Shown here: piece by piece, positions 18,226 to 61,000 of the stretch
How positions within the stretch are numbered: the stretch's first letter is position 1
Layout of the letters: every line of letters begins with the position of its first letter
NCBI GenBank assembly: GCA_964228555.1
Contig: CAXQZU010000022.1
Location: 15,695 to 79,694, forward strand
DNA from: Planctomycetota bacterium
Lineage (GTDB): Bacteria; Planctomycetota; PLA2; JAEUHO01
DNA: 64,000 nucleotides
Direction: 5' to 3'
Notes under the pieces: model-generated
What the model was told of the DNA's origin: nothing
Database searches by the model: none
What the model saw: only the letters and a program-made list of their open reading frames with translations
Program-made: the position numbers and the translations under genes

Positions 18226-18291
18226 CAGGCCAGCCTACGGGGTGCGGCCCACCCGGACGGCACCCCCCCTCCCTGGGTCGCGCCCTCTTGC

Positions 18292-18306: not shown

Positions 18307-18322
18307 GGTTAGGTTGTTCGTC

Positions 18323-18626: not shown

Positions 18627-18661
18627 CCATCCACCGTCTCCATCCACCCTCTCCATCCACC
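18627..18661 (+). repeat. three tandem copies of CCATCCACC separated by 4-5 nt
   Basis: The sequence is CCATCCACCgtctcCATCCACCctctCCATCCACC, in the lexA 5' region. Confidence 0.7.
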
Positions 18662-18729
18662 CCCGAACAAAGCCAAAAGGTAGGCGGCCGTTCGGCCGAT
18701 CCAGCCTCGTAGCCGCAGGAGCCCGCACC

Positions 18730-21770: not shown

Positions 21771-21778
21771 GGCTCCTC

Positions 21779-22900: not shown

Positions 22901-23009
22901 GCCCGCGATCCTACCGCCGCCGCACCGGGCGAGCCCCGCGCGCCCCCCTCGCCCCGGAGCATGCGCGGCCGGCCCGCCGGCCGACGGCCCCCAGCGGTAG
23001 CCTGCGCGC

Positions 23010-27476: not shown

Positions 27477-27669
27477 GGGACAGGCGGGCTCCGGGGTGAA
27501 GGGGCGAGGATAGGGGCGACCCGCCCATGGGCAAGCCACCCCGCCCGAGCCCAGCGTCCGGGCGGTACGCGCCCCCGGCACGCCGGGCCAGCAGCCCCGC
27601 AGGCTGCGGCGGGCCCCGGCGGCGCGCGCGGCGGGCGCCTCGCGGCCACAGGCCCCGGCGCCCGGGCGG

Positions 27670-30565: not shown

Positions 30566-31027
30566 TTACCTCCGGGTCCCGCCGCGCCCGGGCGCCGCAG
30601 CCGCGGGCGCGAGCGAGGCAGGATCGAACATGGAACGGAACAGGGCGATGGGCTTGAGCACGTGCTCGACACGGCCCTCGCGCCGGATGGCCGCCAGCGC
30701 GACCACGCCGGCGCCCGTCGGGTCGAAGGTGCTGGGTGACCAGTCCACGACCACATCGTAGCCCGTCAGCGAGAGCGGGTAGGTCTTGCGCCCGGTGGAC
30801 GGCAGGTCGCGCGGCAGGCCGCCGTAGCGGTCCACCTCCTGCTGCACGATCACGAGCACCTCGGGCCGCAGGCGCCGCAGCTCGGTGTCGAGCCGGCGTG
30901 CGGAGAGGTGCTGCGTGCCGATGGCGAACAGGGGCAGGATGGCGAGGCAGCCCACGAGCAGCATGGACAGCGCCACCATCACCTCGAGGAAGGAGAAGCC
31001 GTGCTGGGCGCGCGCGGGAAGGCTCAA
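30566..31027 (-). CDS. small prepilin-type pseudopilin (minor pilin)
   Basis: TTG start coupled to the upstream stop (TTGA), with GGGAGG upstream. Leader MSLPARAQHG precedes FSFLEVMVALSMLLVGC (class III signal peptide, G-F-x-x-x-E). The rest of the 759-aa ORF in the track is an out-of-frame overlap artefact. Confidence 0.72.
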   Translation of the reverse strand: MSLPARAQHGFSFLEVMVALSMLLVGCLAILPLFAIGTQHLSARRLDTELRRLRPEVLVIVQQEVDRYGGLPRDLPSTGRKTYPLSLTGYDVVVDWSPSTFDPTGAGVVALAAIRREGRVEHVLKPIALFRSMFDPASLAPAAAAPGRGGTRR

Positions 31028-32298
31028 CGGCCACCTCCCGCGCGGAAGGTGCGGTCGCGCCACGCGGGCAGCGCCACCACTGTCGTGGCCGCCTGGCCCA
31101 CCCACACGTCCGCGCCCACGTCGTGGGACTGCTTGCCGGTGCCCCGCTCGCCACGCTCGACGGTCACGGTCAGGCCCACGGGGTCGATGCGCGTGGCGTC
31201 GTACCGCATCCACTCGGTGCCCACCTTGAGGAAGCGGGGCCCGCTGGCCCGGCCCAGCAAGGGCTCCAAGGACTCCACGGGCAGCCGCGTGGCCTCGGCC
31301 GGCACCGTGTCCGACAGCCTCGTGTCGCCGCGCTTGTAGCCGCCCAGCACGGGCGGGATCAGCGTGGCCTCCAGCCGCGCGTACTGCGGGAAGAGGTCGT
31401 CGCTGGGGTCGCCCAGGCTGGCCGGGTCGCGGAACAGCGGCCACGACTTGTCCAGCGCGCGCGTGCTGTCCCACACGGGGCCCACGTACGGCACGTCCTC
31501 GCCACCGCCGCGGTCGGTGCCCGACTCCCAGTCGCGCACGCCGGCGCGGCGCCACGTGACGGCGAAGTGCAGCACGCCCTCGTGCTTCTTCTCGAAGCGC
31601 GCACGCACCTCTGCCAGCGTGTCGAAGCTGGCCGGCTCCAGCAGCGAGTCCGGCCCCCCCACGGGCGACTGGAAGCCGCGGAAGAGGGTCAGCACGCTGG
31701 GACGCGCTGCGTCCAGCGGCACGGCCAGCCAGCACACCGTCATCAGGCCGCCCGTGGCCTTGAAGACGGTGCCGGCGGTGGCCCGCTCGAGCTCGGGCTT
31801 CGTGTAGGGCTTGGCCGTCTCGCCGGCACGCACGGGATCGCCGGCCGTGCGCAGGCGCGGGTCGTTGGCCTCGTCGCCGGTGTGCACCACGAAGGCCACG
31901 TAGGGGCAGGGATAGCCCTTGAGGCCCGGGTCCGCCTGGTCGCGCAGCAGCACCGTGCCGGCCCGCAGGCGCACGCCGACCGGCGGCGGAGGCGCCGGCT
32001 TGGGCATGCCGGGCTCCAGCATCTCCTCGCTGGGGACGATGGGCGGGTCGAGGCTGTCGGGCAGCGCGATGCGCTGCAGGTCGGCCAGCACCTCGGGCAG
32101 CAGCGTGTCCTGGCGGTCGGCCAGCTCGCTGTCGCGTGCCCCCACGCTGAACATCTGGGCGCCCTGCCGCATCATGAACACGGCCGTGCCGCCCAGGATG
32201 CTGAAGATCGCCACCGAGATCAGCAGCTCCAGCAGCGTGAAGCCGCCGCTGGCCGGGCCGCGCGGGCGCGAGGGGCGCTGGGTGGCCGCCGCGCTCAT
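31024..32298 (-). CDS. prepilin-type pseudopilin (large minor pilin, GspK/PilX-size)
   Basis: Leader ...GPASGG precedes FTLLELLISVAIFSILGG (G/FTLLE prepilin motif). 424 aa. ATG overlaps the upstream stop (ATGA). Confidence 0.85.
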   Translation of the reverse strand: MSAAATQRPSRPRGPASGGFTLLELLISVAIFSILGGTAVFMMRQGAQMFSVGARDSELADRQDTLLPEVLADLQRIALPDSLDPPIVPSEEMLEPGMPKPAPPPPVGVRLRAGTVLLRDQADPGLKGYPCPYVAFVVHTGDEANDPRLRTAGDPVRAGETAKPYTKPELERATAGTVFKATGGLMTVCWLAVPLDAARPSVLTLFRGFQSPVGGPDSLLEPASFDTLAEVRARFEKKHEGVLHFAVTWRRAGVRDWESGTDRGGGEDVPYVGPVWDSTRALDKSWPLFRDPASLGDPSDDLFPQYARLEATLIPPVLGGYKRGDTRLSDTVPAEATRLPVESLEPLLGRASGPRFLKVGTEWMRYDATRIDPVGLTVTVERGERGTGKQSHDVGADVWVGQAATTVVALPAWRDRTFRAGGGR

Positions 32299-33506
32299 CG
32301 CGTCCCCCCTGCGGGCGCCTTGCCGGCGGAGGTGTCGCCCTCGGCCACGGGCGGCGCGCCCATGTCGGCGCGGACCATGCCGCTGCGGCCCAGCTCGAGC
32401 ACCAGCGGCAGGTCGCCTGGACGCGTGGCGTCCCGCACCTGCAGCACCACGTCCTGCGGGTGCTGCACGGCGTCCAGGCGCCCGTTGGCGTAGCGCACGC
32501 GCAGCGGCAGGCCCTTGCCCGACGGCGAGAGCACGGAGAACTGGTAGCCGTCGGGCAGCTGGATGCGGTCGTCACGCGTGCTGAACACGCCGCGGAACAC
32601 AAAGCTGTCCATCCGGCCCTGGTAGGGCTGCGTGGCCGAGCCGATGCGCAGGGCCACGGCGCCCTCGGGCGGCACGGCGATGCGGCGCGGGAGCGTGGAG
32701 GCCGGCGGCGGCGGCGGGGCGCCGCGCGCCACGCCGGGCCGGCGCACCGGGCGCTCGAGGCCATCCACCTCGAACAGCGGCGCGGTGCCGTCGAAGGCCA
32801 CCCGCACGTGCACCCAGCGACCGTGGCCGCGCACCGGCGTGCCATCGGTCTCGAAGGTCACCCAGCTGCCCTCGCCGCGGCCGTCGGCAGGCAGCAGGTT
32901 CAGGCGCAAGCGCAGGTCGTAGTCGGAGCCCGTCACGCCGCGGAACAGCGACACCTCGTACGCGCCGGCCCCATCGACCAGCACCATGATGGGCGCCGCG
33001 CCGGTCGGCACGATCCACGCCTCCAGGTCCAGGCCCTCGGTGGTGGCGAAGGCCGCCTGCGGCTGGAAGGCAAGCACGCCCCCGCGGGCGAAGAGCGCGC
33101 CGCCGCCCGTGCGCCCACCCTCGGGGTCCACCTTCACGTCGCCCTGCACCGCCATCGGCAGCAGGCCGCTGGCGCCGTCGATGCGCTCGAAGGCGTGGCT
33201 GAGCACCGTCTCGGCCACGTGCACCGTGGCCTCGTCGGTCTCGCGGCCGTTCTCGTCCTTGGCCCGCTGGAAGGAGAGGGTGGCCAGCCGCCCGCCCATG
33301 CTGCGCGACTGCGCCCGGCGCGCCGCATCGAGGAGCTGCGTGCGGGCCAGCGTCATGCCCGTGGCCCGCCCCGCGCCCTGGATCCAGCCCACGGAGAGGC
33401 CGGCCATGACGGCCACGATGCCCATGATCACGATCAGCTCGACGAAGCTGAAGCCTCGCGGGCTGCCCGTGCGCAGGCTGCCGGGGGTGGCAGGCTCGAT
33501 CACCAT
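32295..33506 (-). CDS. prepilin-type pseudopilin (large minor pilin)
   Basis: Leader MVIEPATPGSLRTGSPRG precedes FSFVELIVIMGIVAVMAGL. 403 aa. ATG overlaps the upstream stop (ATGGTGA). Confidence 0.85.
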   Translation of the reverse strand: MVIEPATPGSLRTGSPRGFSFVELIVIMGIVAVMAGLSVGWIQGAGRATGMTLARTQLLDAARRAQSRSMGGRLATLSFQRAKDENGRETDEATVHVAETVLSHAFERIDGASGLLPMAVQGDVKVDPEGGRTGGGALFARGGVLAFQPQAAFATTEGLDLEAWIVPTGAAPIMVLVDGAGAYEVSLFRGVTGSDYDLRLRLNLLPADGRGEGSWVTFETDGTPVRGHGRWVHVRVAFDGTAPLFEVDGLERPVRRPGVARGAPPPPPASTLPRRIAVPPEGAVALRIGSATQPYQGRMDSFVFRGVFSTRDDRIQLPDGYQFSVLSPSGKGLPLRVRYANGRLDAVQHPQDVVLQVRDATRPGDLPLVLELGRSGMVRADMGAPPVAEGDTSAGKAPAGGTR

Positions 33507-34153
33507 CCCTTGCGGTCGTCCTCGGTGTTGGGCATGCCGTCCTCGCCCATGCTGAAGACCTGGAAGCCGTTGGGGTTCACGAACCCGCCAGCCTCCTCCT
33601 TCCACGGCTTGGGCTGCACGGCACCCTGCGTGCGCGAGATGTAGGTGGGCGGGTCGCGGTCGGCCTGCACGTAGGCCGTGTTCACGAAGTAGATGAGCGG
33701 GTTGCCCCAGCCATCGACGATCTCGCGCAGCTCCACGCCGCGGCTCGTGGCCGCGGCGGCCAGCCGGTCGTCGTCGCTGTTGGCGAGGTCGCGCTCCTCG
33801 TTGAACTCGGCGTCGGTGCCCACCGAGGGCCAGTAGAGGGCCTGATAGAGCGCCTCGATGCCCTCGTTCTCGCCGTTGCTCGTGTGCTTGATGGGCGTCC
33901 CGACGCTGCCCGCCGCGAGGTGGATGTCCTTGAGCAGCACGGGCGGGTACATGCCGTGCTTGCCCTTCCACGCATCCGAGAGCGCCTTCACGCGACGCAG
34001 CACGTCGTCGGTCTGCACCTGCGGGCCGCGCTTGATCCAGATCTGGACCACGACCACGCCCAGGCCGGCCAGCACGGCGATGATGCCCATCACCACGAGG
34101 ATCTCGATGAACGAGAAGCCAGCCTGGCGTCGACGGGAGGCGAGCATGCGCAT
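33500..34153 (-). CDS. GspG/PilA-like major pseudopilin
   Basis: Leader MRMLASRRRQAG precedes FSFIEILVVMGIIAVLAGL. GspG-type C-terminal module (DGWGNPLIYF ... NPNGFQVFSMGEDGMPNTEDD). AGGAG 8 nt upstream of the ATG verified at 34153. Confidence 0.88.
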   Translation of the reverse strand: MRMLASRRRQAGFSFIEILVVMGIIAVLAGLGVVVVQIWIKRGPQVQTDDVLRRVKALSDAWKGKHGMYPPVLLKDIHLAAGSVGTPIKHTSNGENEGIEALYQALYWPSVGTDAEFNEERDLANSDDDRLAAAATSRGVELREIVDGWGNPLIYFVNTAYVQADRDPPTYISRTQGAVQPKPWKEEAGGFVNPNGFQVFSMGEDGMPNTEDDRKGW

Positions 34154-37100: not shown

Positions 37101-37419
37101 CGAAGGAGGGCCGCGCCATCGGCGCGGGGGCCAGCGTGCGCTTGGCGGCGAAGCCGGCCAGCACGGTGTCCTCGCGCGGGCGCGGAGGCGGCCCGGAGAG
37201 ATCGGCCTTGTCGCGCAGCACCACGGCGGTGAACACCACCACGGCCGCCGCGTAGGCCAGCAGGGCCCGCTCCTTGCCCATGACGCGGTCCAGCGCCGCG
37301 GTGACGGCGAGGGCGCCCAGGCCCAGCAGCAGGAACACGAAGAAGGTGCCCAGGGCCGCGCCCACCAGCGGGGCGGGGGCCAGCACGGGCGCCAGGGTCA
37401 GCATGGTGTCGAGGCTCAC
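34192..37419 (-). CDS. large polytopic-anchored TPR-repeat protein of the pilus-like cluster
   Basis: GTG start overlapping the upstream stop (GTGA); alternative ATG at 37404. N-terminal TM helices (LGTFFVFLLLGLGALAVTAAL; AAVVVFTAVVL) then about 900 aa of TPR-like repeats (AYAKAVPTRAEPWIRLGDA, AYAMAATSAEAAGAWRAQALYNLG). Only 38 nt from the gspG-like gene, so no room for a promoter. Confidence 0.75.
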   Translation of the reverse strand: MSLDTMLTLAPVLAPAPLVGAALGTFFVFLLLGLGALAVTAALDRVMGKERALLAYAAAVVVFTAVVLRDKADLSGPPPRPREDTVLAGFAAKRTLAPAPMARPSFESGGRDRRNPYERVSDTRPLPPVEIDLPPEIALEVPLPPTVPGLAPSARRLLRGTLPALDPNDASVPLQVAPVVFEQYVPTPEDVYDWVDVGGKQTFVAIVAIDGVRRGESAFRALERRLAGGEGIDKMQVEWALIGSAEQATKAGLDPTSVAKKSKGNRNTDPAAKFGLWNLRRTVENTYEQAVRRVLGIEPVEATMNLRGLQEAAREMAALGRTGKEQREGWRRAVLLLERARAVAEKAHPPEVQAEVLVSLVEAYNALKDEQAALRALSAYAKAVPTRAEPWIRLGDAALVGMGLPDQSLAYFTKAKGLEEGNERAALGLGDALTALGRDRDALAAYGRAGASFDAQVRRAEAALRVGELPQARQAADAALSQRGDHPRALLARGGVLYALGDLAGAKSAYAMAATSAEAAGAWRAQALYNLGLSHWRLGETRAAAGAFEACELALRQGASPGRRDDETVSPSLGRALIAMALKAPPPADPAAPAADPAAVAAAALPPLGIEPGQAGQFLSAAREEAARTSYLEHLAGVLATRAGNTAAAIRALRRSLDLAPDASELDGWLALNHLRWGLETAGRATQGEAGSSRSALGDENARLDAILALPSAEHHEAAVAFASRAARADGVSAKTVAATLREAWVLLQAQHLSARKRFELAREACDRILKRNDDRNLLEQPAALCMRAYASYRLGGDENYDACQQDLVLVLGKVPAAEEGQPVQPWAAWRTWADKTLTRVKHWRSLEEKVVSFEGMSQLTKEWVTAERSSVKVSLEPEGGLLVFEGKADKDGSMADPTVAAYCQAFFDKSTFEEVRLKLRIPTTQEDGSRANNIFFGVGVQGATSTSGAGAGGIGGRHPGVLLCFEKGLVAARIGTGLSAQWKEGNVARVRDEAGNERAWPAGEWVEVRIVREDAREGLMAVYLNDEQVPVVSDKVSGFKGVSGKAELWLGGWSPSALPYDVKVKDIRVVRVRK

Positions 37420-38336
37420 GAACGGCCCTCCTGCGCGTCGAGATCGAGGCTCGCCTCCGGGCGCACGGCCACGCTCTCCAGGGTCAAGGTCACTTCCACG
37501 AGGCCGGTGGCGGCCTTGGCACGCGACGGCTGCTGCGCGACCAGCCCGGCGATGGGCGTGGGCTGGCGCGGGTCGGTCAGCAGGTCCAGCACCGCCTCCA
37601 CGCATGGCGCAGGCGCCGTCATCACGATCTTGACCGGCCACTCCTGCAGGAACGCATCCGGGCCCGTCGAGCGCGGGTTGTCGAAGGTGACGCTGTCGAT
37701 CGAGGTGGCACCGTTGCGGATGGCGACGTCTGCGATGCGCGCCACCAGCGCCAGGTTGGCCAGGCGACGCTCCAGGTCCTCGCGAGGCACGCTCGTCACG
37801 CTGGCGAAGCCCAGCAGCTCGGCCTCGAGGTCCATGTCGGCGCGGTTGGCGCGCGTGCGCAGCACGTTCCACACGTCCGAGAGCAGCGAGGAGAAGGCCA
37901 CGTTGGGGTTGCCCGTGCGGAACAGGGTCGTGCGGTCCACGGCCAGCCGCTCGGCATCCTTCAGGGCCTGCTCGGCCGCCTTGGCATCGCCCTCGAAGGC
38001 GGATGCGCCCACGCCACCGCGCGCGTAGGCCGCCACCAACGCCATGCGCACCCACGCCTGGATGCGGTCACCGCCGGCCGAGGCCGGGTCGAGCGCCGCG
38101 GCCATCGTGCGCACCGAGGCGTCGAACTGCTCGGCGTTGGCCCGCAGCGTGGTGCCCACGCCGTCGCGCGGCAGCACCAGCGTCTTGACCGAGGACTCGG
38201 CCGAGAGCGCCTGCGCCTCCGCCTCCTCGGGGCTGGGCGTGATCACGTGCACGGCGACCAGGCCCAGCAGGAGGATGCCCAGCCCGAACAGGACGGGGCG
38301 CCAGAAGGAACCGTAGCGTTGCCAGAGCTCGTCCAC
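37416..38336 (-). CDS. GspM/PilO-like bitopic inner-membrane component
   Basis: Short cytoplasmic N-terminus, one TM (FWRPVLFGLGILLLGLVAVHVI) and a periplasmic domain, sitting directly after the PilM/N-like gene. GTG start with GGAGG 7 nt upstream. Confidence 0.65.
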   Translation of the reverse strand: MDELWQRYGSFWRPVLFGLGILLLGLVAVHVITPSPEEAEAQALSAESSVKTLVLPRDGVGTTLRANAEQFDASVRTMAAALDPASAGGDRIQAWVRMALVAAYARGGVGASAFEGDAKAAEQALKDAERLAVDRTTLFRTGNPNVAFSSLLSDVWNVLRTRANRADMDLEAELLGFASVTSVPREDLERRLANLALVARIADVAIRNGATSIDSVTFDNPRSTGPDAFLQEWPVKIVMTAPAPCVEAVLDLLTDPRQPTPIAGLVAQQPSRAKAATGLVEVTLTLESVAVRPEASLDLDAQEGRS

Positions 38337-40353: not shown

Positions 40354-42813
40354 CTAGCGCGGAGGCAGGGCGTCCACGACGCCCGGCGTGCCCTCGATGC
40401 CCTGCATCGCCGAGGCGAGGCGCGCCAGCAGCGCGTCGCCCTCGGCCGTGCCGGACACCAGCGGCGAGAGGCTGGCCTGCAGGTCGCGATAGATCAGCAG
40501 CGCCATCGCCTCGTAGCCCTTGGTGGTGGCCAGCACCGTGGCCAGGCGCTCGAGTCGCTCGCTGCGCGGGCCCAGCGTGGCCAGCGCGCAGGAGCGCTCG
40601 AGGTCTCGCGCCTCGGCCGCCAGATTCTCCACCTGGCTGGCGTAGCTGCCGTCCGAGGCGCCGGCCGGGGCCGACCCGGCAGGGAAGCTGGCTCGCAGGG
40701 CGGCCTCGCGGGCGCGCATGTCCTGCAGGGCCGTCGGCGAGCCCAGCAGCGCGACGGTGCGGACGGCGCTGCGCAAGGCGGCGATGTCGGCCGTCAGCCG
40801 CTCCTCGAGCTGGCGCGCCAGCGTCGAGGCCTCCTCGGCCACGCCCGCCTGGAAGGGGTTGGCCTGCGCCACCTGGCGCAGCGCCCCGATGGCACTGCCC
40901 GGCGAGGTGCGCGCCAGCTGCTTGGCCGCCTCGAGCGCCTGGCGCGCGGCCTCGGCCTGGGCGCCGAACTCCGTCACGACACCGATGCGTCCCGTGCCGC
41001 CCGCCACCGCGTGCACCAGCCGCACCATGCCCGCGTCGTGGGGGTCCTCGACGCCCAGCCGCGCCGTGGTGTCCACGGGCTGGAAGGCCACCAGCGTCTG
41101 CGGGCGAGGACCGTCCGCCTTGGGGTTGCCCGCCAGCGTCTTGCGCAGGTCGCCATCCACGGCTCCCTGCACCAGGGCCGCGCCACGCGCATCGCTCGGC
41201 GTGAGCACGTTGAGCGCGCCCCCGAGGTGCGCCCGCGGCATCTCCGCCACGAGGCCCACCTGGTCGGCCCCCGCGCAGGCGATCTCGGCCAGCAGGCCCT
41301 CCGGGCCGGCCGCCCAGGTCACGCTGCCCTCGAGGTCGCCGGCGGCACCGCGGAAGCGGCCCGCCACGCGCACCGACTCGCCGGAACGCGCCACCTCGCC
41401 CGTCGCCTCGAAGGCGTGGCGCTCGGTGCCCTTCCACGCCGCGGCCGAGAGGGGCGCGGCCAGCAGCGTGCGGTTGACCTGCAGCGTGGCGCTGCCGTCG
41501 GCCTCCACGGTCACGCTGGGCAGGCCGGGCACGTCCAGCGCCTGCGTCGGGGGCATGCCGGGCGTGGCACGCACGGAGACGTCGTCCAGCGAGAGCTTGC
41601 CCCCCACCGGCACCACCAGCTTGAGCGTCAGCGCGCTGGCCCACGACGGGAAGGAGAGGCTGCGATCGACGCTGCCGCCCGCGCCCGTCCCCAGCACCTG
41701 CGCATGCACCACGCCCGTGGCGCCCACGCCCCGGTCCGCGTCGTTGCGCCACACGGCCAGCAGCTCGCCCTGCCCGCGCAGGCGCGCCTTGATGCGCAGC
41801 TGGCGGCCCGCGCTGGCCAGGATCTCCTCGTCGTAGACCACCTCGCCCGTGCGCGCGCCCTCGGCCTGCTCGTTGCGGGCCTCCAGCACGGCACCCTGCG
41901 GGGTGACGACGCGGCCAGCCGACAGCGAGCCGCCGTCGGCCCACGACCACGGCAACTCGGCGCGCTCGAAGGAGCCATTGCGCACCTGCTCGCCCGTGGG
42001 CCCCTGGGCCGCGCCGCCGGCGTTCTCGGCACCGCGCATGAGGAAGAAGCCGCCCGCCCCCACCAAGGCCAGGAACACCACCGTGCTGATCGTGCCGCCG
42101 CGCGACACGCGGGCCTTGCTGAGGTCGATGTCGCCCATCATGCCCCAGCCGTCCTCGTCGTCGATCGTGGCCAGCTCGGCCTCGATCTCCTTCATGGACG
42201 GGTCGCGGAACACGAAGCGCGTGCCCCCCACGCGCAGGCGCATGCCGTGGGCCAGCGTGGACTCGGTGGTGGTGTTGCCATTGACCAGGATGCCGTTCGT
42301 GCTGCCCAGGTCGCGGATCGTGTAGCCGTTGAGATCCTTCACGATCTCGGCGTGATGCCCCGAGGCCATGCGGTCCTCGAGCACGATGGTGTTGCCCGGG
42401 CGGCGGCCCAGCGTGGTGCGCGGCCCGCTGAGCATCACGCGCTGGCCCTTGCGCGGGCCCTCCGCGTACTCCAGCAGGCACACGCCCTGCTTGCCGGCGG
42501 CCGCCAGGCGCGCCTCCTCCTCCGGGTCCTCGAAGCGGATCGAGACCTTGCCCACCTCGATGGCGTCGCCGCTGGCCAGCGCCCGCGCCTCGATGGCCAC
42601 GCCATTGACCCGCGTCTTGTTGGTGGCGCCCAGGTCCGCCACCTCCCAGCCGCCGGCCGCGGCCGGACGCACCTCGCAGTGCTTGCGCGAGGCGCCCTTG
42701 CCGTCGGGCAGCGCGATGCCGCTGGCGGGGTCGCGCCCCACGCTCAGGCTGGTGCCGGGCACCAGCTCGTAGGTCTTCTTCTCGCCATCGAGGTCGACAA
42801 TCAGCCGCGCCAT
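40354..42813 (-). CDS. double-FHA-domain inner-membrane protein (cytoplasmic FHA-FHA, one TM, large periplasmic domain)
   Basis: Two FHA domains (GRDPASGIALPDGKGASRKHCEV...LGATNKTRVNG and LGRRPGNTIVLEDRMASGHHAEIV...LGSTNGILVNG). TM TISTVVFLALVGAGGFFLM. About 530 aa periplasmic. Topology resembles T3SS YscD/EscD. ATG verified at 42813. Confidence 0.85.
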   Translation of the reverse strand: MARLIVDLDGEKKTYELVPGTSLSVGRDPASGIALPDGKGASRKHCEVRPAAAGGWEVADLGATNKTRVNGVAIEARALASGDAIEVGKVSIRFEDPEEEARLAAAGKQGVCLLEYAEGPRKGQRVMLSGPRTTLGRRPGNTIVLEDRMASGHHAEIVKDLNGYTIRDLGSTNGILVNGNTTTESTLAHGMRLRVGGTRFVFRDPSMKEIEAELATIDDEDGWGMMGDIDLSKARVSRGGTISTVVFLALVGAGGFFLMRGAENAGGAAQGPTGEQVRNGSFERAELPWSWADGGSLSAGRVVTPQGAVLEARNEQAEGARTGEVVYDEEILASAGRQLRIKARLRGQGELLAVWRNDADRGVGATGVVHAQVLGTGAGGSVDRSLSFPSWASALTLKLVVPVGGKLSLDDVSVRATPGMPPTQALDVPGLPSVTVEADGSATLQVNRTLLAAPLSAAAWKGTERHAFEATGEVARSGESVRVAGRFRGAAGDLEGSVTWAAGPEGLLAEIACAGADQVGLVAEMPRAHLGGALNVLTPSDARGAALVQGAVDGDLRKTLAGNPKADGPRPQTLVAFQPVDTTARLGVEDPHDAGMVRLVHAVAGGTGRIGVVTEFGAQAEAARQALEAAKQLARTSPGSAIGALRQVAQANPFQAGVAEEASTLARQLEERLTADIAALRSAVRTVALLGSPTALQDMRAREAALRASFPAGSAPAGASDGSYASQVENLAAEARDLERSCALATLGPRSERLERLATVLATTKGYEAMALLIYRDLQASLSPLVSGTAEGDALLARLASAMQGIEGTPGVVDALPPR

Positions 42814-43180
42814 GCCTTGCCGCTCCTTCGTGCCCGGGCCGCCCTCGCCCCGGGCATACGCCCCCCGCCAGCCGGCCAAGGCTGCTCGGAAGGCCTCCGG
42901 ACCCTGGGTCAACCCATTGGGTAAACCGGCACCCTACCCCCACGGAACGACGGGACGCAACGCCCAACCCAGCGCGGCCTTGCGCGTGGCCACGGCCCGG
43001 GCCGGCCCCAGGGCCGGCCTGCGGCCGGCGTGACGAGCCGGCTCGACCCTGGCAGCGAAGTTGACACCTGCTGGTAACGAGGTAGCGCCGCCCTCTCGGG
43101 TCCTTAGTCTCGGCTGCCGTGCTGCCCCTGCCTCCCCGGCCCGCAGGCGGCCTCGGGTCACCGCAGGCCGCGGCGGGCTC

Positions 43181-45232
43181 CTAGGCGCGGGGCTTGGGCG
43201 GCTGCTCCTCGTCCATGCCGTAGCGCTCCAGCTTCTTGCGCAGGCCCAGGCGCGAGAGGCCCAGTTCCTCGGCGGCGCGGCTCTTGTTCCACGCGTGCCG
43301 CTGCAGCGTGCCGCGCAGCACGCGGCGCTCGAGGTCCTCGACCAGGCCCTTGAGGCCCTGGTCGGGCAGGGGTGCCCTCGGATCCGGCGGGCGGTAGGCA
43401 AGCAGGCGTGCGCTCAGGTGCTCGGGGCGGATCACGCCGCCACTCTCGAGGGCCAGCAGCCGCTGCACCTCGTTGCGCAGCTCCCGCACGTTGCCGGGCC
43501 AGTCGTAGGCGGCCATCAAGTCCAGCGCGCCGGGCTCGAGGCGCACGGGGCGCGTGGGATCCCCCAGCTCGCGCAGGAACCAGGCCACCAGCGCCGGGAT
43601 GTCCTCCCGCCGGTCGCGCAGCGCCGGCACCTCGATGACCACCCCGGCGAGCCGGTGGTAGAGGTCCTGCCGGAAGCGGCCGTCGGCGATGAGGCTCCCG
43701 AGGTCCACCTGCGTGGCCGCCACCAGCCGCACGTCCACGGGGGTGGCAGCCTTGGCACCCAGCCGCCGCACGGTGCCGCCCTCGAGCACCCGCAGCAGCT
43801 CCTTCTGCAGCTCCGCGGGCAGCTCGCCCACGTCGCGCAGGAACAGCGTGCCCTCGTGGGCCTGCTCGAAGAGGCCGGCGTGGTCCCGCGGCGCGGCGGG
43901 CACCGCCCCCCGCACGGCGCCGCGGAACTCGCTCTCCACGAGGCCCGGCGGCAAGGCGCCGCAGGCCTCCACCACGAAGCGACCGCGACGCTGGGCCCCG
44001 TTGAAGTGGATGGCTCGCGCCAGCAGCTCCTTGCCCGTGCCGGGCTCCCCCACCACCAGCACCGGCACGTCCAGGTCGGTCACCCGGTCCACGACACGCA
44101 GCAGCGTGCGCATGGCCGGGCTGCGTCCCACGATGGCGTCGTAGGCGTACTTGAGCCCCAGCTCGTGAGACTGCTTGGCCAGGTCCTCCCGGGCCTGCCG
44201 CAGGGCCGTGGTGCGCAGGCGCAAGGCCTTGCGCAGGCGGTCGTTGAGGCGCTCGATGCGGCGGGACTGGCGCACCGCCTCGCGCCGGCGCATGCCCATC
44301 TCGCGCCGCTGGCGCGCGTTGCGGATGGCGATGGCCGCCAGCCGCGCGTAGCCCTCGAGGATGCGCACGTGGAAGCCATCGAAGCGCCCGGACTCGTAGG
44401 TGTTGTCCAGGTAGATGGCGCCCAGCACCTGCCCCTCGCCGGGCAGCGGCACGCACACCAGCGAGCGCAGCGAGAGGTTGACGATGCTGGCAGCGCCGTC
44501 GAAGCGCTCGTCGCAGATGGCGTCCTCGCTGAGCACGCTGGCGCCCTCGCGGATCACCTGGGCCGCCACGCTGACGGAGTAGGCGCCGTCGGCATCGACC
44601 AGGTCGCGGTGGTCGCGCAGGCGGGCGCGGCGCACCCGGAAGTGGTCGCCCTCGTTGAGCAGCAGGATGCCCCGGGCCGCCCCGCACAGCTGGATGGCGG
44701 CGTCCAGCACGGCGTCGAGCAGCTCGTCCTCGTCGCTGACGGCCTGCAGCTTCTCGTTGAGCTCCATCAGGTGGCCCAGCGCGCGGATCTCGCGCTGGCG
44801 CTCGGCCAGCGTCACGCTGCCGGTGGCGCCAGCGAGGCCCATGTCGGTGGCGTGCGGGTCGGCTTGCGCCGCCTGCTCCACGAGGCCCGGGACCGCCTTG
44901 ACGGCCGGCTTGGGACGGATGGCCCCGGGCAGGAACACGCGCACCTGCGTCTCGCCCACCTCGATGGCATCGCCCTCGGCAAGGCGTGCGTCCAGCACGG
45001 TGGCGCCGTTGAGCATCGTGCCGTTGCGCGAGCCCAGGTCGGTCACGCGCCAGCCATCGCTGCCCAGGTAGATGCGGCAGTGGCGCCTGGAGAGCGTGCG
45101 ATCCTCGACCGGCACGTCCACGCCGGCATCGCGCCCCACCACGACGGCCTCGGCGCGCAGCTCGAAGACCCTCTGGTCGTGGCCGGGCGACTTCACGAAC
45201 AGGCGCAGCGGGTCGCGTGCCATGCCCACCAC
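43181..45232 (-). CDS. FHA-GAF-AAA+-HTH bacterial enhancer-binding-protein homologue with a degenerate GAFTGA motif
   Basis: N-terminal FHA (GRDAGVDVPVEDRTLSRRHCRIY...LGSRNGTMLNG), central GAF-like region, AAA+ with Walker A GEPGTGKE. The GAFTGA position reads ESEFRGAVRGAVPAAP. C-terminal HTH. GTG at 45232 or ATG at 45223. Confidence 0.88.
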   Translation of the reverse strand: MVGMARDPLRLFVKSPGHDQRVFELRAEAVVVGRDAGVDVPVEDRTLSRRHCRIYLGSDGWRVTDLGSRNGTMLNGATVLDARLAEGDAIEVGETQVRVFLPGAIRPKPAVKAVPGLVEQAAQADPHATDMGLAGATGSVTLAERQREIRALGHLMELNEKLQAVSDEDELLDAVLDAAIQLCGAARGILLLNEGDHFRVRRARLRDHRDLVDADGAYSVSVAAQVIREGASVLSEDAICDERFDGAASIVNLSLRSLVCVPLPGEGQVLGAIYLDNTYESGRFDGFHVRILEGYARLAAIAIRNARQRREMGMRRREAVRQSRRIERLNDRLRKALRLRTTALRQAREDLAKQSHELGLKYAYDAIVGRSPAMRTLLRVVDRVTDLDVPVLVVGEPGTGKELLARAIHFNGAQRRGRFVVEACGALPPGLVESEFRGAVRGAVPAAPRDHAGLFEQAHEGTLFLRDVGELPAELQKELLRVLEGGTVRRLGAKAATPVDVRLVAATQVDLGSLIADGRFRQDLYHRLAGVVIEVPALRDRREDIPALVAWFLRELGDPTRPVRLEPGALDLMAAYDWPGNVRELRNEVQRLLALESGGVIRPEHLSARLLAYRPPDPRAPLPDQGLKGLVEDLERRVLRGTLQRHAWNKSRAAEELGLSRLGLRKKLERYGMDEEQPPKPRA

Positions 45233-45301
45233 GAGGCAACCGTCGTGCCAGAGCGCGGCCCCCCGCGGCCTCCACGCCGCGCCCCGGGCGTCACCGAGGC
45301 G

Positions 45302-54754: not shown

Positions 54755-54940
54755 ATGGCTGCGGGCCAGCAGCAAAAAGCCGGGATCGGGTGACGCGAGC
54801 GTGACACGCAGGCCGGACTCTTCCCTCGTCCAGGGTCCATGGGCAGGCCTGCATCGCGGCGCGCGCGCGCCGTCCCGACGCACGAGGGTTCGTCGGGGGC
54901 ATGCAGGCGTGCTCGTGTTCCCGCATGGAGCACACCGCGG

Positions 54941-57760
54941 ATGTCGAGCATCACCTCGTTCACGAACCTCCCTGCGTCGCGCCGTGTCCTTGGCATCGCG
55001 CTCTGCGTGCTGCTGGCCACGCCGCTGGCCGCGTGCCGGACCCACCGCCTCGGCGTGGAGCCCTACGGCCCCGCCGGCGAGGCCGGTGACGCGCCGGTCG
55101 CGCCCGCGCAGCCGGGCCCCGACACCGTGGTGGCCAGCGCTCAGCCCGAGGAGCAGCCCGCGGCTCCTGCGGCCGAGCCGCCGGCTGAGCCTGCGCCCGC
55201 CCCGGCGCCCGAGAAGACGCCCGAGCAGCAGCTGGAGGAGGCGCGTCGCGCCGCGCAGATCGCCAGCGAGCAGACCAAGTTCCTGGTCGGCCAGCAGCTG
55301 GCCAAGGCCCGCGAGGCGATGAGCGCCGGCAACATCGAGGCCGCCCGCGAGGCCTACGGCAAGGCGCTGGAGCTGGATCCGGGCAACAGCGAGGCCCTCG
55401 AGGGCTGGACCAACCTGACCTCGAACCGCCCCAGCTCCGTGGAGGGCTACCTCAAGGAGCAGCGTGCGCTCCAGCAGGTGCGCCGCCAGGAGGCCGTGGC
55501 GCGCGTGCGCAACCACCTCGAGCTGGGCCGCTCGCTCGAGTCGCGCGAGGAGTTTGCCGGCGCGGTGCAGGAGTACAACCGCGCGCTGGCGATCGTGAGC
55601 TGGTACGACGACACCAGCGACTTCGGCACCTCCGCCGCCGCGCTGCGTGACCTGATCGACAACGCCCAGCACAAGTCGGCCCTGGCCGAGCGCACCCGTC
55701 GCGAGGAGGCCCTGCGTGCCGCCCAGGTCGAGCGCGAGCGCGACCTGATGCGCACCCGCGAGCAGGCGCTGGGCAAGATCCAGGCCTACTTCGAGCAGGC
55801 CAACGTGGCCTTCCGCGAGGGCCGCTACGAGGCAGCCATCGACTACGCGCGCCAGGTGCTGCGCATCGACCCCACCAACCGCAGCGCCACGGGCATGATC
55901 AACGTCGCGCACGACGCCAAGCACATGGCCGCGCTCGACACGCACAAGCGCAACTTCGACGACCAGTGGAAGCGCGTCATGCAGCAGCTCGAGTTCGACA
56001 TGCTGCCGCAGACCAAGGTCGTGGAGTGGTCCGAGGACTGGCTGGACGGCATCGCCCAGCGCAAGCCCCGCGTGGTGGGCGACGCGGTGCCCACCGACGA
56101 GCTGGGCACCAACGGCGCCATCTACGCCGCGCTGAAGAGCAAGCGCGTGACGAACCTGCAGTGGGGTGACGACACCACGCTGCCCATGGCCGTGAGCTAC
56201 CTGCGCACGATGACCGGCCTGAACTTCTACATCACGCCCAAGGCGCAGACCGAGAAGGAGGAGGCCCGCGTGCCCCTCACGATCGACGACTACGCCGTGA
56301 GCGACATCCTCGACATCATGACCGAGCAGAACGGCCTCAAGTGGGAGGTGCGTGACGGCCTGGTGCGCATCACCACCGCCGAGGAGATCACCGGCTCGTA
56401 CATCCGCCGCTTCTTCGACATCAACGACCTGCAGGTCAAGATCCAGTCGCACCTGGGCCAGGAGATCAACCTGTTCCCCAGCAACTTCACGCCGCCCGAG
56501 CCGCCCGAGCTGGCCGAGCCCGTGGAGATGATCGCCCCCGAGCAGCTGCAGGAGCTGATCAAGGAGACGATCGGCGGGCCTGGCGCGTGGGAGGACCCCG
56601 CCATCCTCGAGGCCCGCAAGGGCCTGCTGATCGCCGTGAACACCCCCGAGGTGCTGGCGGACGTCGAGAAGCTGCTCAACGAGCTGCGCGCCAACACGGG
56701 CTTGCTCGTGAACCTCGAGGTGCGCTTCCTGACGGCCGAGGACAACTTCCTGCGCGACGTCGGCATCGACGTGCGCGGCCTGGGCCTGACCAACACGACG
56801 GCCGGCGTGCCCGGGCTGGGCACCTCGGTGACCCAGAACGACGTGTTCTTCGGCAACCCCTCCGCCCCCACGGGCTTCAGCAGCGCGCTGGGCCTGCAGC
56901 CCGAGCCCTCCTCGGTGGGCACGGCAGCGGACGCGGGCCTCTTCTACAACGACGGTGCGGACGGCCAGTACTCGGCACGCATGGAGAACCTCTTCGACGT
57001 GCTGCTGGGCAACCCGGAGGTCCTCACGGGCTCGGGCGGCCTCTCGTTCCAGCACACCTTCCTCGACGACACCGAGATGGAGGTGATCCTGCGCGCCGTC
57101 CAGAAGAGCGAGCGCATCCAGAACATCACCAGCCCGCGCATCACGGTCTACAACACCCAGCGCGCCAACGTGCAGGTGCTCAACCAGGTCTCGTACGTGC
57201 AGGACTACGAGGTCGAGATCGCGCAGGCGTCGAACATCGCCAACCCCGTGATCCAGACCATCCTCGACGGCATCGTGCTGGACGTGCGCCCCACGGTCTC
57301 GCAGAACCTGAAGTTCGTGACGCTCGAGCTGCGTCCCACGGTGGCCGTGCTCACCCGCCCGATCGCGACGTTCACCACGTCGCTGGCCTCGGGCCCGGTG
57401 ACGGCCAACGCCCCCATCACGATCCAGCTGCCCGAGCTGCGCGTGAGCCGCGTGCGCACGACGGTGACGATGCCCGACCGCGCCACCCTGCTGCTGGGCG
57501 GCCTGAAGTACTACGAGCAGGAGACGATGACCAGCACGACGCCCATCCTGGGCGACATCCCGATCCTGTCGCTGCTGTTCTCGCGCAAGGGCCACTACGT
57601 CAACCGCCGCAACCTGCTGATCCTCATCACGGCCGAGATCGTGCCGCTCGAGGAGTACGCGCCCAAGGGCGAGCTCGACGTGCAGCCCCTGCCGCCCGAG
57701 GCGTTCACGTGGCGCCCGGTGGCCGAGCCGGTCGCGGCGCCTGCGCCGGCCTGCAAGTAG
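54941..57760 (+). CDS. secretin (T2SS/T4P/T3SS family) with an N-terminal TPR-lipoprotein (pilotin-like) domain
   Basis: Lipoprotein signal (VLGIALCVLLATPLAAC). Pro/Ala-rich linker, three or more TPR-like motifs (AYGKALELDPGNSEAL; AIDYARQVLRIDPTN), secretin N domains (LKWEVRDGLVRITT; LLIAVNTPEVLADVEKLLNELRA) and the C-terminal secretin core (LLVNLEVRFLTAE ... TTPILGDIPILSLLFSRKG ... NLLILITAEIV). Confidence 0.9.
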   Translation: MSSITSFTNLPASRRVLGIALCVLLATPLAACRTHRLGVEPYGPAGEAGDAPVAPAQPGPDTVVASAQPEEQPAAPAAEPPAEPAPAPAPEKTPEQQLEEARRAAQIASEQTKFLVGQQLAKAREAMSAGNIEAAREAYGKALELDPGNSEALEGWTNLTSNRPSSVEGYLKEQRALQQVRRQEAVARVRNHLELGRSLESREEFAGAVQEYNRALAIVSWYDDTSDFGTSAAALRDLIDNAQHKSALAERTRREEALRAAQVERERDLMRTREQALGKIQAYFEQANVAFREGRYEAAIDYARQVLRIDPTNRSATGMINVAHDAKHMAALDTHKRNFDDQWKRVMQQLEFDMLPQTKVVEWSEDWLDGIAQRKPRVVGDAVPTDELGTNGAIYAALKSKRVTNLQWGDDTTLPMAVSYLRTMTGLNFYITPKAQTEKEEARVPLTIDDYAVSDILDIMTEQNGLKWEVRDGLVRITTAEEITGSYIRRFFDINDLQVKIQSHLGQEINLFPSNFTPPEPPELAEPVEMIAPEQLQELIKETIGGPGAWEDPAILEARKGLLIAVNTPEVLADVEKLLNELRANTGLLVNLEVRFLTAEDNFLRDVGIDVRGLGLTNTTAGVPGLGTSVTQNDVFFGNPSAPTGFSSALGLQPEPSSVGTAADAGLFYNDGADGQYSARMENLFDVLLGNPEVLTGSGGLSFQHTFLDDTEMEVILRAVQKSERIQNITSPRITVYNTQRANVQVLNQVSYVQDYEVEIAQASNIANPVIQTILDGIVLDVRPTVSQNLKFVTLELRPTVAVLTRPIATFTTSLASGPVTANAPITIQLPELRVSRVRTTVTMPDRATLLLGGLKYYEQETMTSTTPILGDIPILSLLFSRKGHYVNRRNLLILITAEIVPLEEYAPKGELDVQPLPPEAFTWRPVAEPVAAPAPACK

Positions 57761-57840: not shown

Positions 57841-58023
57841 TGGCCGCTCGCATGGTGCGCAGCGCGGCCGAGGGCTGGCGCCGAGGTCGCACGGGCGGGC
57901 CGCGTTGCCCGCCGCTCCCCCCATCCGTAGAATGCGCCCGCCTTGGCCCGCACGCGCGAGCCAGCGCGGGACGGTGCAGCCCCCGGGGCCCGCACCGCCC
58001 TCCCCTGCCCCTGGAGCCCATCC

Positions 58024-61000
58024 ATGGTGTTCACGCGCCGCTTCCTGCGCCTCTCCGGCGTCCTGCTGCTGCCCGCCCTGCTGCTGGCGGGCGCACCGCG
58101 CGCCGAGGCCGGTGCGGACGACTTCGAGTTCGGCCAGAAGCTGGCCCAGGCGCGCTTCTTCAAGCTGGCCCGCCGCGTCTACGAGGGCATGCTCACGGCG
58201 CAGGGCAGCAGCGACACGCAGAAGGACCTCGCGCGCTACGGGCTCGCCACGCTCGGCCACCAGGAGGCGCTCAGCGCCGGCGCCCGCAGCGAGGTGCCCT
58301 TCGCCGAGGTGATCGCGCTCTACAACACGGCCGCCGAGCAGGTGGACGCCTTCGCCCAGAAGAACCCCAACCACCCCAAGGCACGCGACGCGCGGCTGCT
58401 GAGCGGCAAGATCCGCCTCGACGTCGTCAACTGGTGCCGCGACCTGCTGGACCTGCCTGAGATGCTGGCGTCGCGCAAGGCCTCGCCCGGCGAGGTGGCC
58501 TCGGCCGCGCGCAAGGCCGTCGACGACGCCACCTCGCACTTCGAGGCCCTCAAGGGCTCGGGCGGCGACCTGGCCGAGCTGGCGGGGTACTACTGGACCA
58601 CGGCCCAGTACTACAAGGCCCTGACGCTGGACGGCGGCAGCGCAGCCCAGATGGCCGCCTTGCGCGACGCCGAGACCAAGCTGGACGACTACATCAGCGA
58701 GAACGACGGCAAGCTGCTGGCCGTGTTCGCGCAGGACATGCTGGGCCTGACGCTGGCCGAGCGCGCGAAGCACACGCCCGGCGACGAGGAGCGCGCGCAG
58801 CTCTACAGCAAGGCGCTGACCTGGTTCCAGACCTGCATCGACCAGGAGTACATGGACGCGGACACGCTCACGGTCATCACCAATGGCTACCAGCACTACG
58901 GCAAGGCCTGCCTCGAGGCGGGCCGCATCGGCACGCGCAACTTCTGGCGCGAGGGCGTCAACGTGCTGGGCGAGATGCTGGCCAAGGTGCCGACCTCGGG
59001 CAAGACCGGCAACGGCATCCGCGCCATGCTGGTGCTGGGCGACCTGCAGAAGGCGCTGGGCGACTCCTCGGCCGCGCTGAACACGTACAAGGACGCATCG
59101 GACCGGGCCAGCCAGATCGACCAGCGCGGCCTGGCAGCAGAGGCCGACAAGCGCGTGCGCGAGGCCACGCGCGGCGGCGCCGTGCAGATCACCGACATCA
59201 ACATCGCGCGCAAGGTGGCGCAGAGCAACCTCGACGAGAAGCGCTGGGAAGAGGCGATCTCGGGCTTCCAGGACGTGATCGCGCTGGCGCCCAGCACGCC
59301 GCAGGCCTTCGTCGAGATGGTGTGGCCGTCGTGGGAGAAGATTGCCACGGCCTACCGCGAGCTGGGCGATCCGCTGTCGGCCGCGATGGCCTACGAGGCC
59401 ATCCACGAGGCATGGCTGGCCGGCCTCATCTCGCACAAGAAGGGTGACGAGAACGACAACAACATGCGCCGCGCCGGCGGCAATCGCAAGGCGGGCATCC
59501 GCCTGCTGGACGAGCTGGCCACGAAGACCGGATCCAAGGTGTTCCGCGAGGCCATGAAGCGCGCCGACGCAGGCTTTGCCACGGACTTCCCCGACCACCC
59601 GGACAGCAAGGACAGCGTGCTGCGCGTGGCGCTGGACAAGTACAAGGCGGCGCGCGACGCCAAGCGGGCGAAGGCGGCCGGCTGGCGCGCACAGTTCGAG
59701 GAGGCGCGCAAGCTGTTCGAGGCCGAGGCCCGCAACGCCAAGAGCCAGAACCAGGACGCGGCGGCCTCCTACGTGATCCAGATCGACTACCAGATGGTCT
59801 ACGACCCCGGCACGGTGGCGCCCCCGGCCGAGGGCCGCAAGGCGGCCGAGCGCGGGCTGGCCTTCTCCAGCGAGATGCTTGCCTTCTGGGCCTCGGAGGC
59901 CGGCCAGCAGAAGATCAAGGACTTCCCCACGCTGGCCGGCAAGCGCACCTCGGCCGTGAAGGACGTGCGCCTGCGCCGTGGTGACCTGCTCAAGGCGCTG
60001 GACCGCTGGGACGAGGTGATCTCCGAGATGACCGCGATGCGCTCCGAGGTGGGCGACGGCGAGGAGGGGGACGACGCGCAGGCCCTCGTGGTGGAGGCCC
60101 ACGTCGAGAAGGGCAGCACGGCTGCCGCCGACGAGGCGCTCAAGGTGCTGCTCAAGCGCGGCAAGCACCCGGCCATCCCGGCGCTGGTGGGCAAGGTGGC
60201 TGGCACCTTCGACGCCCAGTTCCGCGAGCTGACCAAGCAGTTCAACACGAAGAACGAGGAGCTCAACGGCACCCGCGAGGACCGCAGCACGGGCATCAAC
60301 GCGCGCATGCGCACGACCGAGGCCCGCTACAACGACCTGCTGGCGCAGAAGGTGAGCCGCCAGCAGGTGGTGGACGTGCACCGCCGCGACATCGAGGCGT
60401 GGCGCAAGGACCCCGAGACCCGCAAGGGCCTGACCGAGAAGACGGTGAAGGAGCTCGAGGAGAAGACCATCCCCGAGCTCGACGCCCTGGTCGCGAGCCT
60501 GACGAGCGAGATCGGCTCGCTGGACACGCAGATGCAGGCCCTGCGCACGCGTTCGGAAGCCCTGCAGGGCGAGATCCGCGACATCACCCTCGCGCAGTAC
60601 GCGCCGCTCAAGGAGGCGGTCAAGCGCTTCGACCTGGGCCTGCAGAGCGCGCTGGACGCCGGCGTGACGCCCAAGGCCGCCGAGCTGGGCAACATCGCCG
60701 CCCGCTGGTACGCCGCGGCCCGCAACGCCAAGGGCGAGGAGGGAGACTGGCAGAAGGCCCGCCTGCGCTACGAGCAGTTCATGGACCTGGCCGAGGTGAA
60801 GGCGCTGCCTGACACCGACGCGAGCAAGCGGGGCGCGCAGGCCAAGCTGGGGCGCATCTACTCGCACTTCTCCGAGGTGGAGAAGGATGCCGGCCGCCGC
60901 GCCGAGACCGTGCGCAAGGCCATCCTGCTGCTGGAGCAGACGCTGGCAGCCCGGCCGGAGAACAACGAGATCCTGCTGGGCTTGCTGGGCGGGCGCTACG

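Follow-up and report, generated by a model that had tools for sequence, protein, structure and literature searches.

An FHA-GAF enhancer-binding protein of a planctomycete species with altered sigma-54 contact loop and ATPase motifs, probably converted to sigma-54-independent function

Introduction

Atypical bacterial enhancer-binding proteins (bEBPs, in the following EBPs) form an established class which includes TyrR, PhhR, HupR, HsfA, NtrX and VpsR (PMC6158489) and to which the NtrC proteins of Rhodobacter and Caulobacter also belong (PMC10274813). Here, we describe an EBP gene with FHA, GAF, AAA+ and helix-turn-helix (HTH) domains, located at 43181-45232 on the minus strand of a 64 kb stretch of DNA from a Planctomycetota bacterium (contig CAXQZU010000022.1; the whole stretch is called the window in the following, and its base composition is about 75% G+C). 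With a probability of roughly 60% by our own estimate, this gene, which by position is orthologous to canonical FHA-GAF sigma-54 activators, was turned into an atypical, sigma-54-independent EBP within one species of Planctomycetia. A search of the literature found no paper on this FHA-GAF EBP family.

The closest described system in type is VpsR of Vibrio cholerae, in which GAFTGA is substituted and Walker B reads ND (RD in the window EBP) and which works together with sigma-70; as in the window EBP, the C-terminal HTH is kept, and the genes concerned are of the surface or biofilm type (PMC6158489). In this comparison, PDB entry 7v2b was among the sequence matches of the window EBP. The two proteins differ in their input, VpsR having a REC domain and binding cyclic di-GMP in place of FHA and GAF, and also in their targets, since those of VpsR are devoid of -24/-12 boxes while the target in the window retains a relic-like one. 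Furthermore, VpsR represents an old and widespread lineage, whereas the change in the window is confined to one species.

Like the window EBP, TyrR of Escherichia coli and PhhR of Pseudomonas putida are members of the Sigma54_activat family without a functional GAFTGA. Depending on ligand and ATP, both repress or activate sigma-70 promoters. In TyrR, the loop is deleted, Walker B is intact, and the N-terminus carries ACT-PAS domains, unlike the FHA-GAF arrangement found here. NtrC of Rhodobacter capsulatus and of Caulobacter also lacks GAFTGA and regulates sigma-70 promoters, the R. capsulatus protein acting from distant enhancer sites with ATP bound and not hydrolysed (PMC10274813). Both of these NtrC proteins show a deletion of the L1 loop, in contrast to the substitutions in the window EBP, and have a REC input domain; that of Caulobacter still requires the Walker B Asp. 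Their loss of GAFTGA is common to whole genera or orders, compared with a single species in our case.

Two further systems resemble the locus in particular aspects. PexR of Myxococcus xanthus shares the GAF-AAA+-HTH order and binds upstream repeats; its target has both a sigma-54 and a sigma-A promoter, of which PexR down-regulates the latter, giving a precedent for an overlapping layout (PMC12754779). Unlike the window EBP, PexR has canonical Walker A, Walker B and GAFTGA motifs, is an active sigma-54 activator and lacks FHA. In Neisseria, a conserved -24/-12 element was kept at pilE after the move to a sigma-70 promoter, and the sigma-54 system decayed (PMC6755734). There, Npa is truncated and rpoN defective, whereas the window EBP is of full length and under selection in a cell in which sigma-54 is apparently still used.

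Atypical EBPs being known as a class, what is new is a member with FHA and GAF domains and, in particular, how recently it changed. TyrR, VpsR, NtrX and the Rhodobacter and Caulobacter NtrC proteins are old lineages, so the route from a sigma-54 activator cannot be reconstructed from them. The window case comes with a canonical syntenic sister at 84% identity, about 80 further orthologues and two alignable cis-regulatory regions, and thus offers a natural before-and-after pair for the origin of sigma-54-independent regulators. By exchange of fewer than 20 residues and two promoter bases between the natural alleles, it becomes directly testable which substitutions suffice, what an ATPase-dead ring still does, and whether the promoter co-evolves with its regulator.

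Results and Discussion

Gene and domain architecture

The longest open reading frame (ORF) at 43181..45232 (-) comprises 683 aa from a GTG start at 45232, which serves as the origin of residue numbering throughout. The likely start is the ATG at 45223, three codons further in, giving 680 aa; it agrees with independent gene calls on other assemblies and with the aligned N-termini of orthologues. Both the gene and its domain order, which the original prediction had read from the letters of the window, proved to be real by ORF and Pfam analysis. An FHA domain at 44954..45145 (-; residues 30-93), with its phosphothreonine-binding signature intact (GR33-34, SRRH48-51, NG70-71), is followed by a GAF domain at 44324..44737 (-; residues 166-303) and by the Sigma54_activat AAA+ core (PF00158) at 43634..44134 (-; residues 367-533), the match to the latter reaching 176 bits (E 5.8e-52) over the whole model length. 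AAA_lid_14 spans residues 539-616, and a Fis-type HTH_8 DNA-binding domain is located at 43220..43342 (-; residues 631-671). In phmmer searches, the solved structures of NifA, ZraR and FleQ in the PDB were matched with E-values between 1e-55 and 1e-62. No equivalogue cut-off was reached in an NCBIfam scan of the EBP (NifA 279 vs 529), and the score of 205.5 bits for TyrR NF008085, against a cut-off of 576, indicates that it is not a TyrR equivalogue.

Directly downstream and in the same orientation, as had been noticed before, lies an operon for 2xFHA, PilM-like, TPR and N-methyl (pseudopilin) proteins. Its first gene, at 40354..42813 (-), encodes the 2xFHA protein of 819 aa and is the presumed regulatory target of the EBP.

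Alteration of the sigma-54 contact loop and of the ATPase site

The alignments between Walker A and Walker B are ungapped in the phmmer comparisons with the solved NifA, ZraR and FleQ, where the stretch containing GAFTGA is paired with the segment ESEFRGAVRGAVPAAPRDHAGLFEQA of the window EBP. The equivalent of GAFTGA is thus G442-A-V-P-A-A447, in an ungapped register also against 80 orthologues and at the DNA level, and the L1 loop at 43892..43909 (-) carries the changes F444V, T445P and G446A in the protein and DNA alignments. The rest of the translation is devoid of GAFTGA. The earlier reading of a degenerate loop with Phe replaced by Val therefore stands, and its register has to be moved by four residues: it had taken GAVRGA (438-443) for the loop and assigned a Thr to Arg replacement, where the aligned residue is Pro. 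The segment GAVRGA corresponds to GYMRGA, i.e. the "G(H/Y)xKGA" stretch which precedes the canonical GAFTGA. As GAFTGA equivalent it was rejected because it would require a compensating pair of indels in alignments that have no gap at either the protein or the DNA level.

The AAA+ domain had further been described as otherwise canonical. This holds for the Walker A Lys, the Arg fingers and the HTH, but not for three other elements of the active site. Walker A, GEPGTGKE at 44027..44050 (-), differs from the GESGTGKE of the family by Ser to Pro only, and the Arg-finger segment RQDLYHR at 43652..43672 (-) keeps R521 and R527 (PspF R162 and R168) beside the changes E522Q and Y526H, so that FREDL of the orthologues reads FRQDL. 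The sensor II Arg is kept as well (GNVRELRN). On the other hand, the glutamate-switch Asn (PspF N64), part of ENC in all orthologues, is replaced by A423 at 43964..43966 (-). Walker B has changed from LFLDE to LFLRD (463-467), with R466-D467 in place of D-E at 43832..43837 (-), and sensor I from ATNRDL to ATQVDL, with Q508-V509 in place of N-R at 43706..43711 (-). These departures are no peculiarity of the genome as a whole, for the NtrC-like protein at 20364-21770 (-) keeps both GAFTGA and LFLDE, as had been pointed out for its GAFTGA.

In PspF, F85 and T86 of GAFTGA contact region I of sigma-54, and no open complex is formed when any of the six positions is substituted (PMC3467059). With T86A, the closed complex is not engaged, and E108 together with N64 forms the glutamate switch that couples the nucleotide state to L1 (PMC4132715). 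Judged from its sequence, the window EBP lacks what defines a functional sigma-54 activator, namely GAFTGA, the Walker B Glu and the switch Asn, and shows the features by which an atypical EBP is defined: an AAA+ domain of the EBP type and an HTH together with an altered GAFTGA and a non-consensus Walker B. Since the changes affect three GAFTGA positions, the Walker B acidic residues and the Asn residues of both the glutamate switch and sensor I, remodelling of sigma-54 and hydrolysis of ATP are very unlikely.

At the DNA level, the motif changes are point substitutions, ungapped against relatives with 84% and 72% protein identity. A frameshift or assembly artefact was rejected: only point substitutions were found, and separate assemblies of several samples yielded the identical allele. 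Walker B can also be read at this level as the insertion of an Arg codon and the deletion of the Glu codon, by which an Asp would be preserved. Such a reading would favour the idea that the protein is still a sigma-54 activator, working with an L1 loop outside the canon and with an active site in which the Asp is shifted by one and hydrolysis is assisted in trans. We regard this as very improbable, because in PspF a single GAFTGA substitution of any kind abolishes the open complex, three are present here, and the protein has lost the catalytic Glu together with the Asn paired to it and the Asn of sensor I.

Orthologues and restriction of the change to one species

In a homologue search covering 5.8 billion proteins, about 80 of them with 55-84% identity and the same architecture formed a tight family, and the close relatives all derive from metagenome-assembled genomes of Planctomycetota or Planctomycetia. 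GAFTGA, LFLDE, ENC and ATN(R/K)DL are kept in 80 of the 80 orthologues listed in this range of identity. None of these 80 tolerates any of the changes described, which again argues against an active EBP. The degenerate motifs occur only in the 90%-identity cluster of the query, whose listed representative (P0001) is 99% identical to it. In four orthologues (P0003, P0006, P0024 and P0101), JGI gives the label "serine/threonine-protein kinase PknK", although their Pfam lists are without a kinase domain; this naming is likely a misannotation.

The gene order rsmE-EBP-2xFHA is kept in about 25 loci from GTDB genomes as well as in the 84%-identical relative. Given this synteny, the window gene is the positional orthologue, changed in situ, and a divergent paralogue was rejected on the same ground. 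The canonical FHA-GAF-AAA+-HTH proteins P0002-P0081 have the domain order, synteny, upstream element and promoter positions in common with the window EBP and differ from the window species by their canonical motifs, including ATNRDL, and by a target promoter of the form nGG(A/T)A(T/C)-N5-TTGC.

The distribution of the changes within the protein is uneven. Among columns at least 95% conserved in 72 full-length orthologues, the AAA+ core of the window EBP departs at 14 of 100 sites (S397P, R414Q, N423A, F444V, T445P, G446A, D466R, E467D, K478E, E485G, N508Q, R509V, E522Q and Y526H), compared with 2 of 130 elsewhere (Fisher p=3e-4), these two lying in the coiled coil (1/22) and the lid (1/21). 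FHA (0/19), GAF (0/35) and HTH (0/29) show none, together 0/83, and the HTH differs from that of the 84%-identical orthologue in 2 of 42 residues. By these comparisons, the sigma-54 contact loop and the hydrolysis residues have been lost from a protein whose FHA, GAF, signalling helix, lid and HTH are essentially unaltered.

In a relative-rate test of the AAA+ core with five outgroups, 24 changes were specific to the window and 2 to its sister (p=1.6e-5), and the pairwise ratio of nonsynonymous to synonymous divergence (dN/dS) against the 84%-identical relative was 0.39 for the core and 0.10-0.25 for FHA, GAF, coil and lid. Crude counts polarised with a single outgroup (L073) gave 85 vs 35 nonsynonymous changes, so the window branch has evolved faster overall. 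Multi-nucleotide codon changes at motif sites, taken as a sign of positive selection, were not significantly enriched (10/14 vs 43/94 codons, p=0.09). The motif codons shifted mostly from AT to GC (15 vs 3), whereas the whole gene shows no direction (60 vs 56); as a cause of the motif changes, GC pressure is suggestive only.

Population data and selection

Eight protein alleles make up the species-level cluster; they come from several runs in two archives, on at least 34 contigs, and all have identical degenerate motifs. It includes the NCBI protein MFM8385440.1 in GCA_046089665.1, for which the automatic annotation as "sigma 54-interacting transcriptional regulator" overstates the function of this EBP. 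Seven distinct DNA haplotypes with an intact ORF in each segregate for 15 nonsynonymous and 58 synonymous changes, of which the AAA+ core has 5 and 18 and the remainder of the gene 10 and 40, respectively (Fisher p=1). The resulting ratio of nonsynonymous to synonymous polymorphism (pN/pS) is 0.11 for the core and 0.10 for the whole gene, with binomial p-values against neutrality of 1e-6 and 1e-20, respectively. The degenerate allele is fixed in the species and kept by purifying selection, which now acts on the altered AAA+ domain in the ordinary way. Polymorphism persists at sites 414 and 526, i.e. at two of the 14 altered sites, against 3 of the 162 remaining sites of the core (p=0.05), which fits a loss of constraint specifically at these two positions.

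These data bear on the question of whether the gene is functionless and in early decay, that is, a pseudogene with an intact ORF. The joint change of five catalytic or contact motifs, the overall acceleration of the window branch and the polymorphism remaining at two altered sites would agree with such a state. The absence of stops and frameshifts from all seven haplotypes speaks against it, as does the lack of any departure in FHA, GAF and HTH, for a dead gene would change everywhere. Because pN/pS is low in the AAA+ core, the window EBP gene is not regarded as a pseudogene; the population data largely refute this explanation, and we give it very little credence.

Regulatory region of the FHA operon

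A -24/-12-type element between 42814 and 43180 does exist in the spacer between the EBP gene and the FHA operon. This is half of what the original prediction had named beforehand as evidence against it, the other half being expression that depends on the EBP and on rpoN. It is conserved in the family, with a -24 box that has drifted in the window species. The element, TGGGTTGGGCGTTGC at 42957..42971 (-), is of the type TGGGTT-N5-TTGC. The pattern nGG(A/T)A(T/C)-N5-TTGC is found in the spacer of all 25 related loci and takes the form TGGAATGAGCGTTGC in the 84%-identical relative. In the window species, GGAAT of the closest relatives has become GGGTT, with T at position 5 in place of an A that is invariant in the family; this T is fixed across haplotypes, and GG and TTGC are kept. 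Only in this species does the -24 box depart from the family consensus, and its erosion fits a loss of sigma-54 activation.

Overlapping the -12 box, the sequence TTGCGT-N18-TAGGGT at 42931..42960 (-) is a possible -35/-10 pair of the sigma-A type. Its spacing is conserved: of the 25 loci scored, the window included, 15 have TAGG(G/T)T at a distance of exactly 18 nt from TTGCxx. In high-G+C bacteria, -10 boxes of the form TAnnnT or TAGRRT are found, and the sequence may thus represent an overlapping sigma-A-type promoter. The box TAGG(G/T)T (42931-42936, -) can be seen as a sigma-A-type -10 or else as a conserved sequence covering roughly +9 to +14 in the sigma-54 transcript.

The TTACC-containing element GTTACCAGCAGGTGTCAAC at 43060..43078 (-), located 106 nt upstream of the -24 box, is a candidate site for the HTH, as an enhancer or an operator. 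Of 22 loci, 18 have such an element at a distance of 99-138 nt on the upstream side of the -24 box, and TTACCA occurs in 12 of 21 spacers and in 0 of 21 coding controls. The sequence GTTACCAGCAGGTGTCAAC is invariant across the 7 haplotypes while its flanks vary, and 18 of its 19 positions are identical in the 84%-identical relative. A second sequence similar to TTACC-N5-GGTTGAC lies at about 42905-42925 (-), just 3' of TAGGGT. Only the window species has it (the window itself and locus L002), L001 and the other relatives being without it. An operator gained recently is one possible reading, the resemblance to the upstream element being weak (10/18). No convincing inverted repeats were found in the regions upstream of the operon and of the EBP gene, a scan for terminators between 42700 and 45400 gave no matches, and neither did an Rfam scan of the 5' untranslated and intergenic regions. 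The retention of GG, TTGC and the enhancer-like element upstream is what a still active sigma-54 activator would lead one to expect, and sigma-54 is evidently used in this genome; set beside the state of the active site, we continue to consider such activity very improbable.

Promoter of the EBP gene

The EBP gene itself is preceded by a perfect sigma-54 consensus (TGGCAC-N5-TTGC), TGGCACGACGGTTGC at 45236..45250 (-), at a distance of 12 nt from the ATG. No other sequence in the window matches TGGCAC-N5-TTGC exactly, and about 0.09 matches would be expected by chance as estimated from base composition. The form (T/C)GGCCY-N5-TTTGC is found at the equivalent position, 12-14 nt before the start, in about 21 of 25 orthologous loci, and a sigma-54-type site at this position was seen in L001 and L004-L030. 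A conserved promoter of this kind, as predicted from the sequence, implies a leaderless or nearly leaderless mRNA with a leader of 1-3 nt. Autoregulation through a shared enhancer found no counterpart, the TTACC element being absent from the 300 nt or less upstream of the EBP promoter in every locus examined.

Proposed mode of action

In the reading we prefer, signals would still be sensed through GAF and, by way of phosphothreonine, through FHA. The preserved Walker A Lys, Arg fingers and sensor II make it probable that nucleotide is still bound and that the protein still oligomerises. The HTH would still occupy the TTACC element upstream of the FHA/PilM/pseudopilin operon, because HTH and element are as conserved as in the active relatives. 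Sigma-54 RNA polymerase would no longer be remodelled, and the output would be sigma-54-independent, most likely the repression or modulation, by occupancy or architecture, of a sigma-A-type promoter overlapping the decaying -24/-12 element. Such a protein would act in the manner of VpsR, TyrR, NtrX and the NtrC of Rhodobacter and Caulobacter. A sigma-54-independent regulator, a repressor or a scaffold had already been suggested by the original prediction; the altered active site, the conserved HTH, FHA and GAF and the purifying selection agree with this idea and give it a better footing, on which it is plausible.

Several points weigh against this reading. A perfect sigma-54 site precedes a gene whose own product looks blind to sigma-54, an arrangement for which the reading offers no account. 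The retained GG and TTGC mean that the -24/-12 element could still bind the sigma-54 holoenzyme, and the erosion of its -24 box is a single evolutionary event. The putative sigma-A-type promoter is weak, matching the E. coli consensus at 6 of 12 positions (3/6 and 3/6); TTGCxx-N18-TAGG(G/T)T is also present in relatives with canonical EBPs, and a scan for E. coli-type sigma-70 promoters between 42700 and 45400 gave no matches. We infer ATP binding, oligomerisation and DNA binding from retained residues, and the regulatory direction could be repression or activation. Finally, rpoN was not found among the scanned ORFs of the window, and the presence of rpoN or of a compensating paralogue is viewed here within these 64 kb.

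In an alternative reading, the protein would act mainly through contacts with other proteins and not by itself as a DNA-bound regulator: as an ATPase-dead subunit in mixed rings, as an enhancer-blocking anti-activator or dominant-negative form, or as an FHA scaffold that links Ser/Thr kinases to the 2xFHA protein next to it. The perfect sigma-54 promoter of the EBP gene implies a further, active EBP in the cell, and a canonical NtrC-like EBP is encoded in the window. The retained Arg fingers, sensor II, lid and phosphothreonine pocket of FHA would suit such a role, as would the purifying selection still acting on the AAA+ core, and HrpR/HrpS is an example of a co-dependent EBP pair (PMC3105312). 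The conservation of HTH and TTACC element to the same degree as in active relatives argues instead for continued DNA binding; moreover, mixed rings require compatible interfaces, and no partner EBP was identified. We consider action of this kind unlikely as a whole, and an anti-activator or mixed-ring partner less likely than a regulator working by occupancy.

The occupancy-type regulator can be placed in a wider and more speculative picture, which we put forward tentatively and as rather doubtful in its entirety. The locus would be a sigma-factor switch in progress, in which an ancestral PexR-like dual regulator lost its activator half and kept its repressor or architectural half. The ancestral EBP would have activated the -24/-12 promoter of a pilus-like or type II secretion system (T2SS)-like operon and damped the overlapping sigma-A promoter (TTGCxx-N18-TAGGKT). 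In one species, the L1 loop and the hydrolysis site would then have been dismantled and erosion of the -24 box begun, while FHA/GAF sensing, oligomerisation, HTH and enhancer would have been kept under selection. If true, this would amount to the in-situ origin of an atypical EBP at the level of a species.

Neighbouring loci

The canonical two-component pair in the window is located at 20364-23119 (-) and consists of a PAS-HisKA-HATPase kinase and an NtrC-like REC-AAA+-HTH EBP with intact GAFTGA and DE in Walker B. The kinase gene is preceded, at a distance of about 470 nt, by a sigma-54-like site with one mismatch, TGGCGCGTGCGTTGC at 23587-23601 (-). A PTS_EIIA_2 (PtsN-like) protein is encoded at 10430-11122 (+), adjoining rplS and trmD; PtsN genes often accompany rpoN.

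Near the FHA/PilM/pseudopilin operon, a TPR-secretin protein is encoded at 54794-57760 (+). A T2SS-G domain is found in the ORF at 24471-27731, and N-methyl proteins at 33500-34153 and within 31024-32571. By its domain content, the region looks like a cluster for a machinery of the T2SS or type IV pilus type.

Large ORFs with a high G+C content at third codon positions (GC3) and without a Pfam match are located at 57931-61734 (+; 1267 aa), 4895-7012 (-), 32295-33506 (-) and 37416-38336 (-). Long ORFs on opposite strands overlap at 11138-16519 (-) and 13235-15901 (+) and again at 15898-18234 (-) and 16756-18312 (+). All of these pass the GC3 filter, and only the minus-strand ORF of 1793 aa has domain matches (PQQ_2/BamB-like and PDZ), so strand calls need care here. 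A LexA-like repressor with LexA_DNA_bind and Peptidase_S24 domains is encoded at 18313-19335 (+); within the ORF limits used, its N-terminus is extended by a long stretch.

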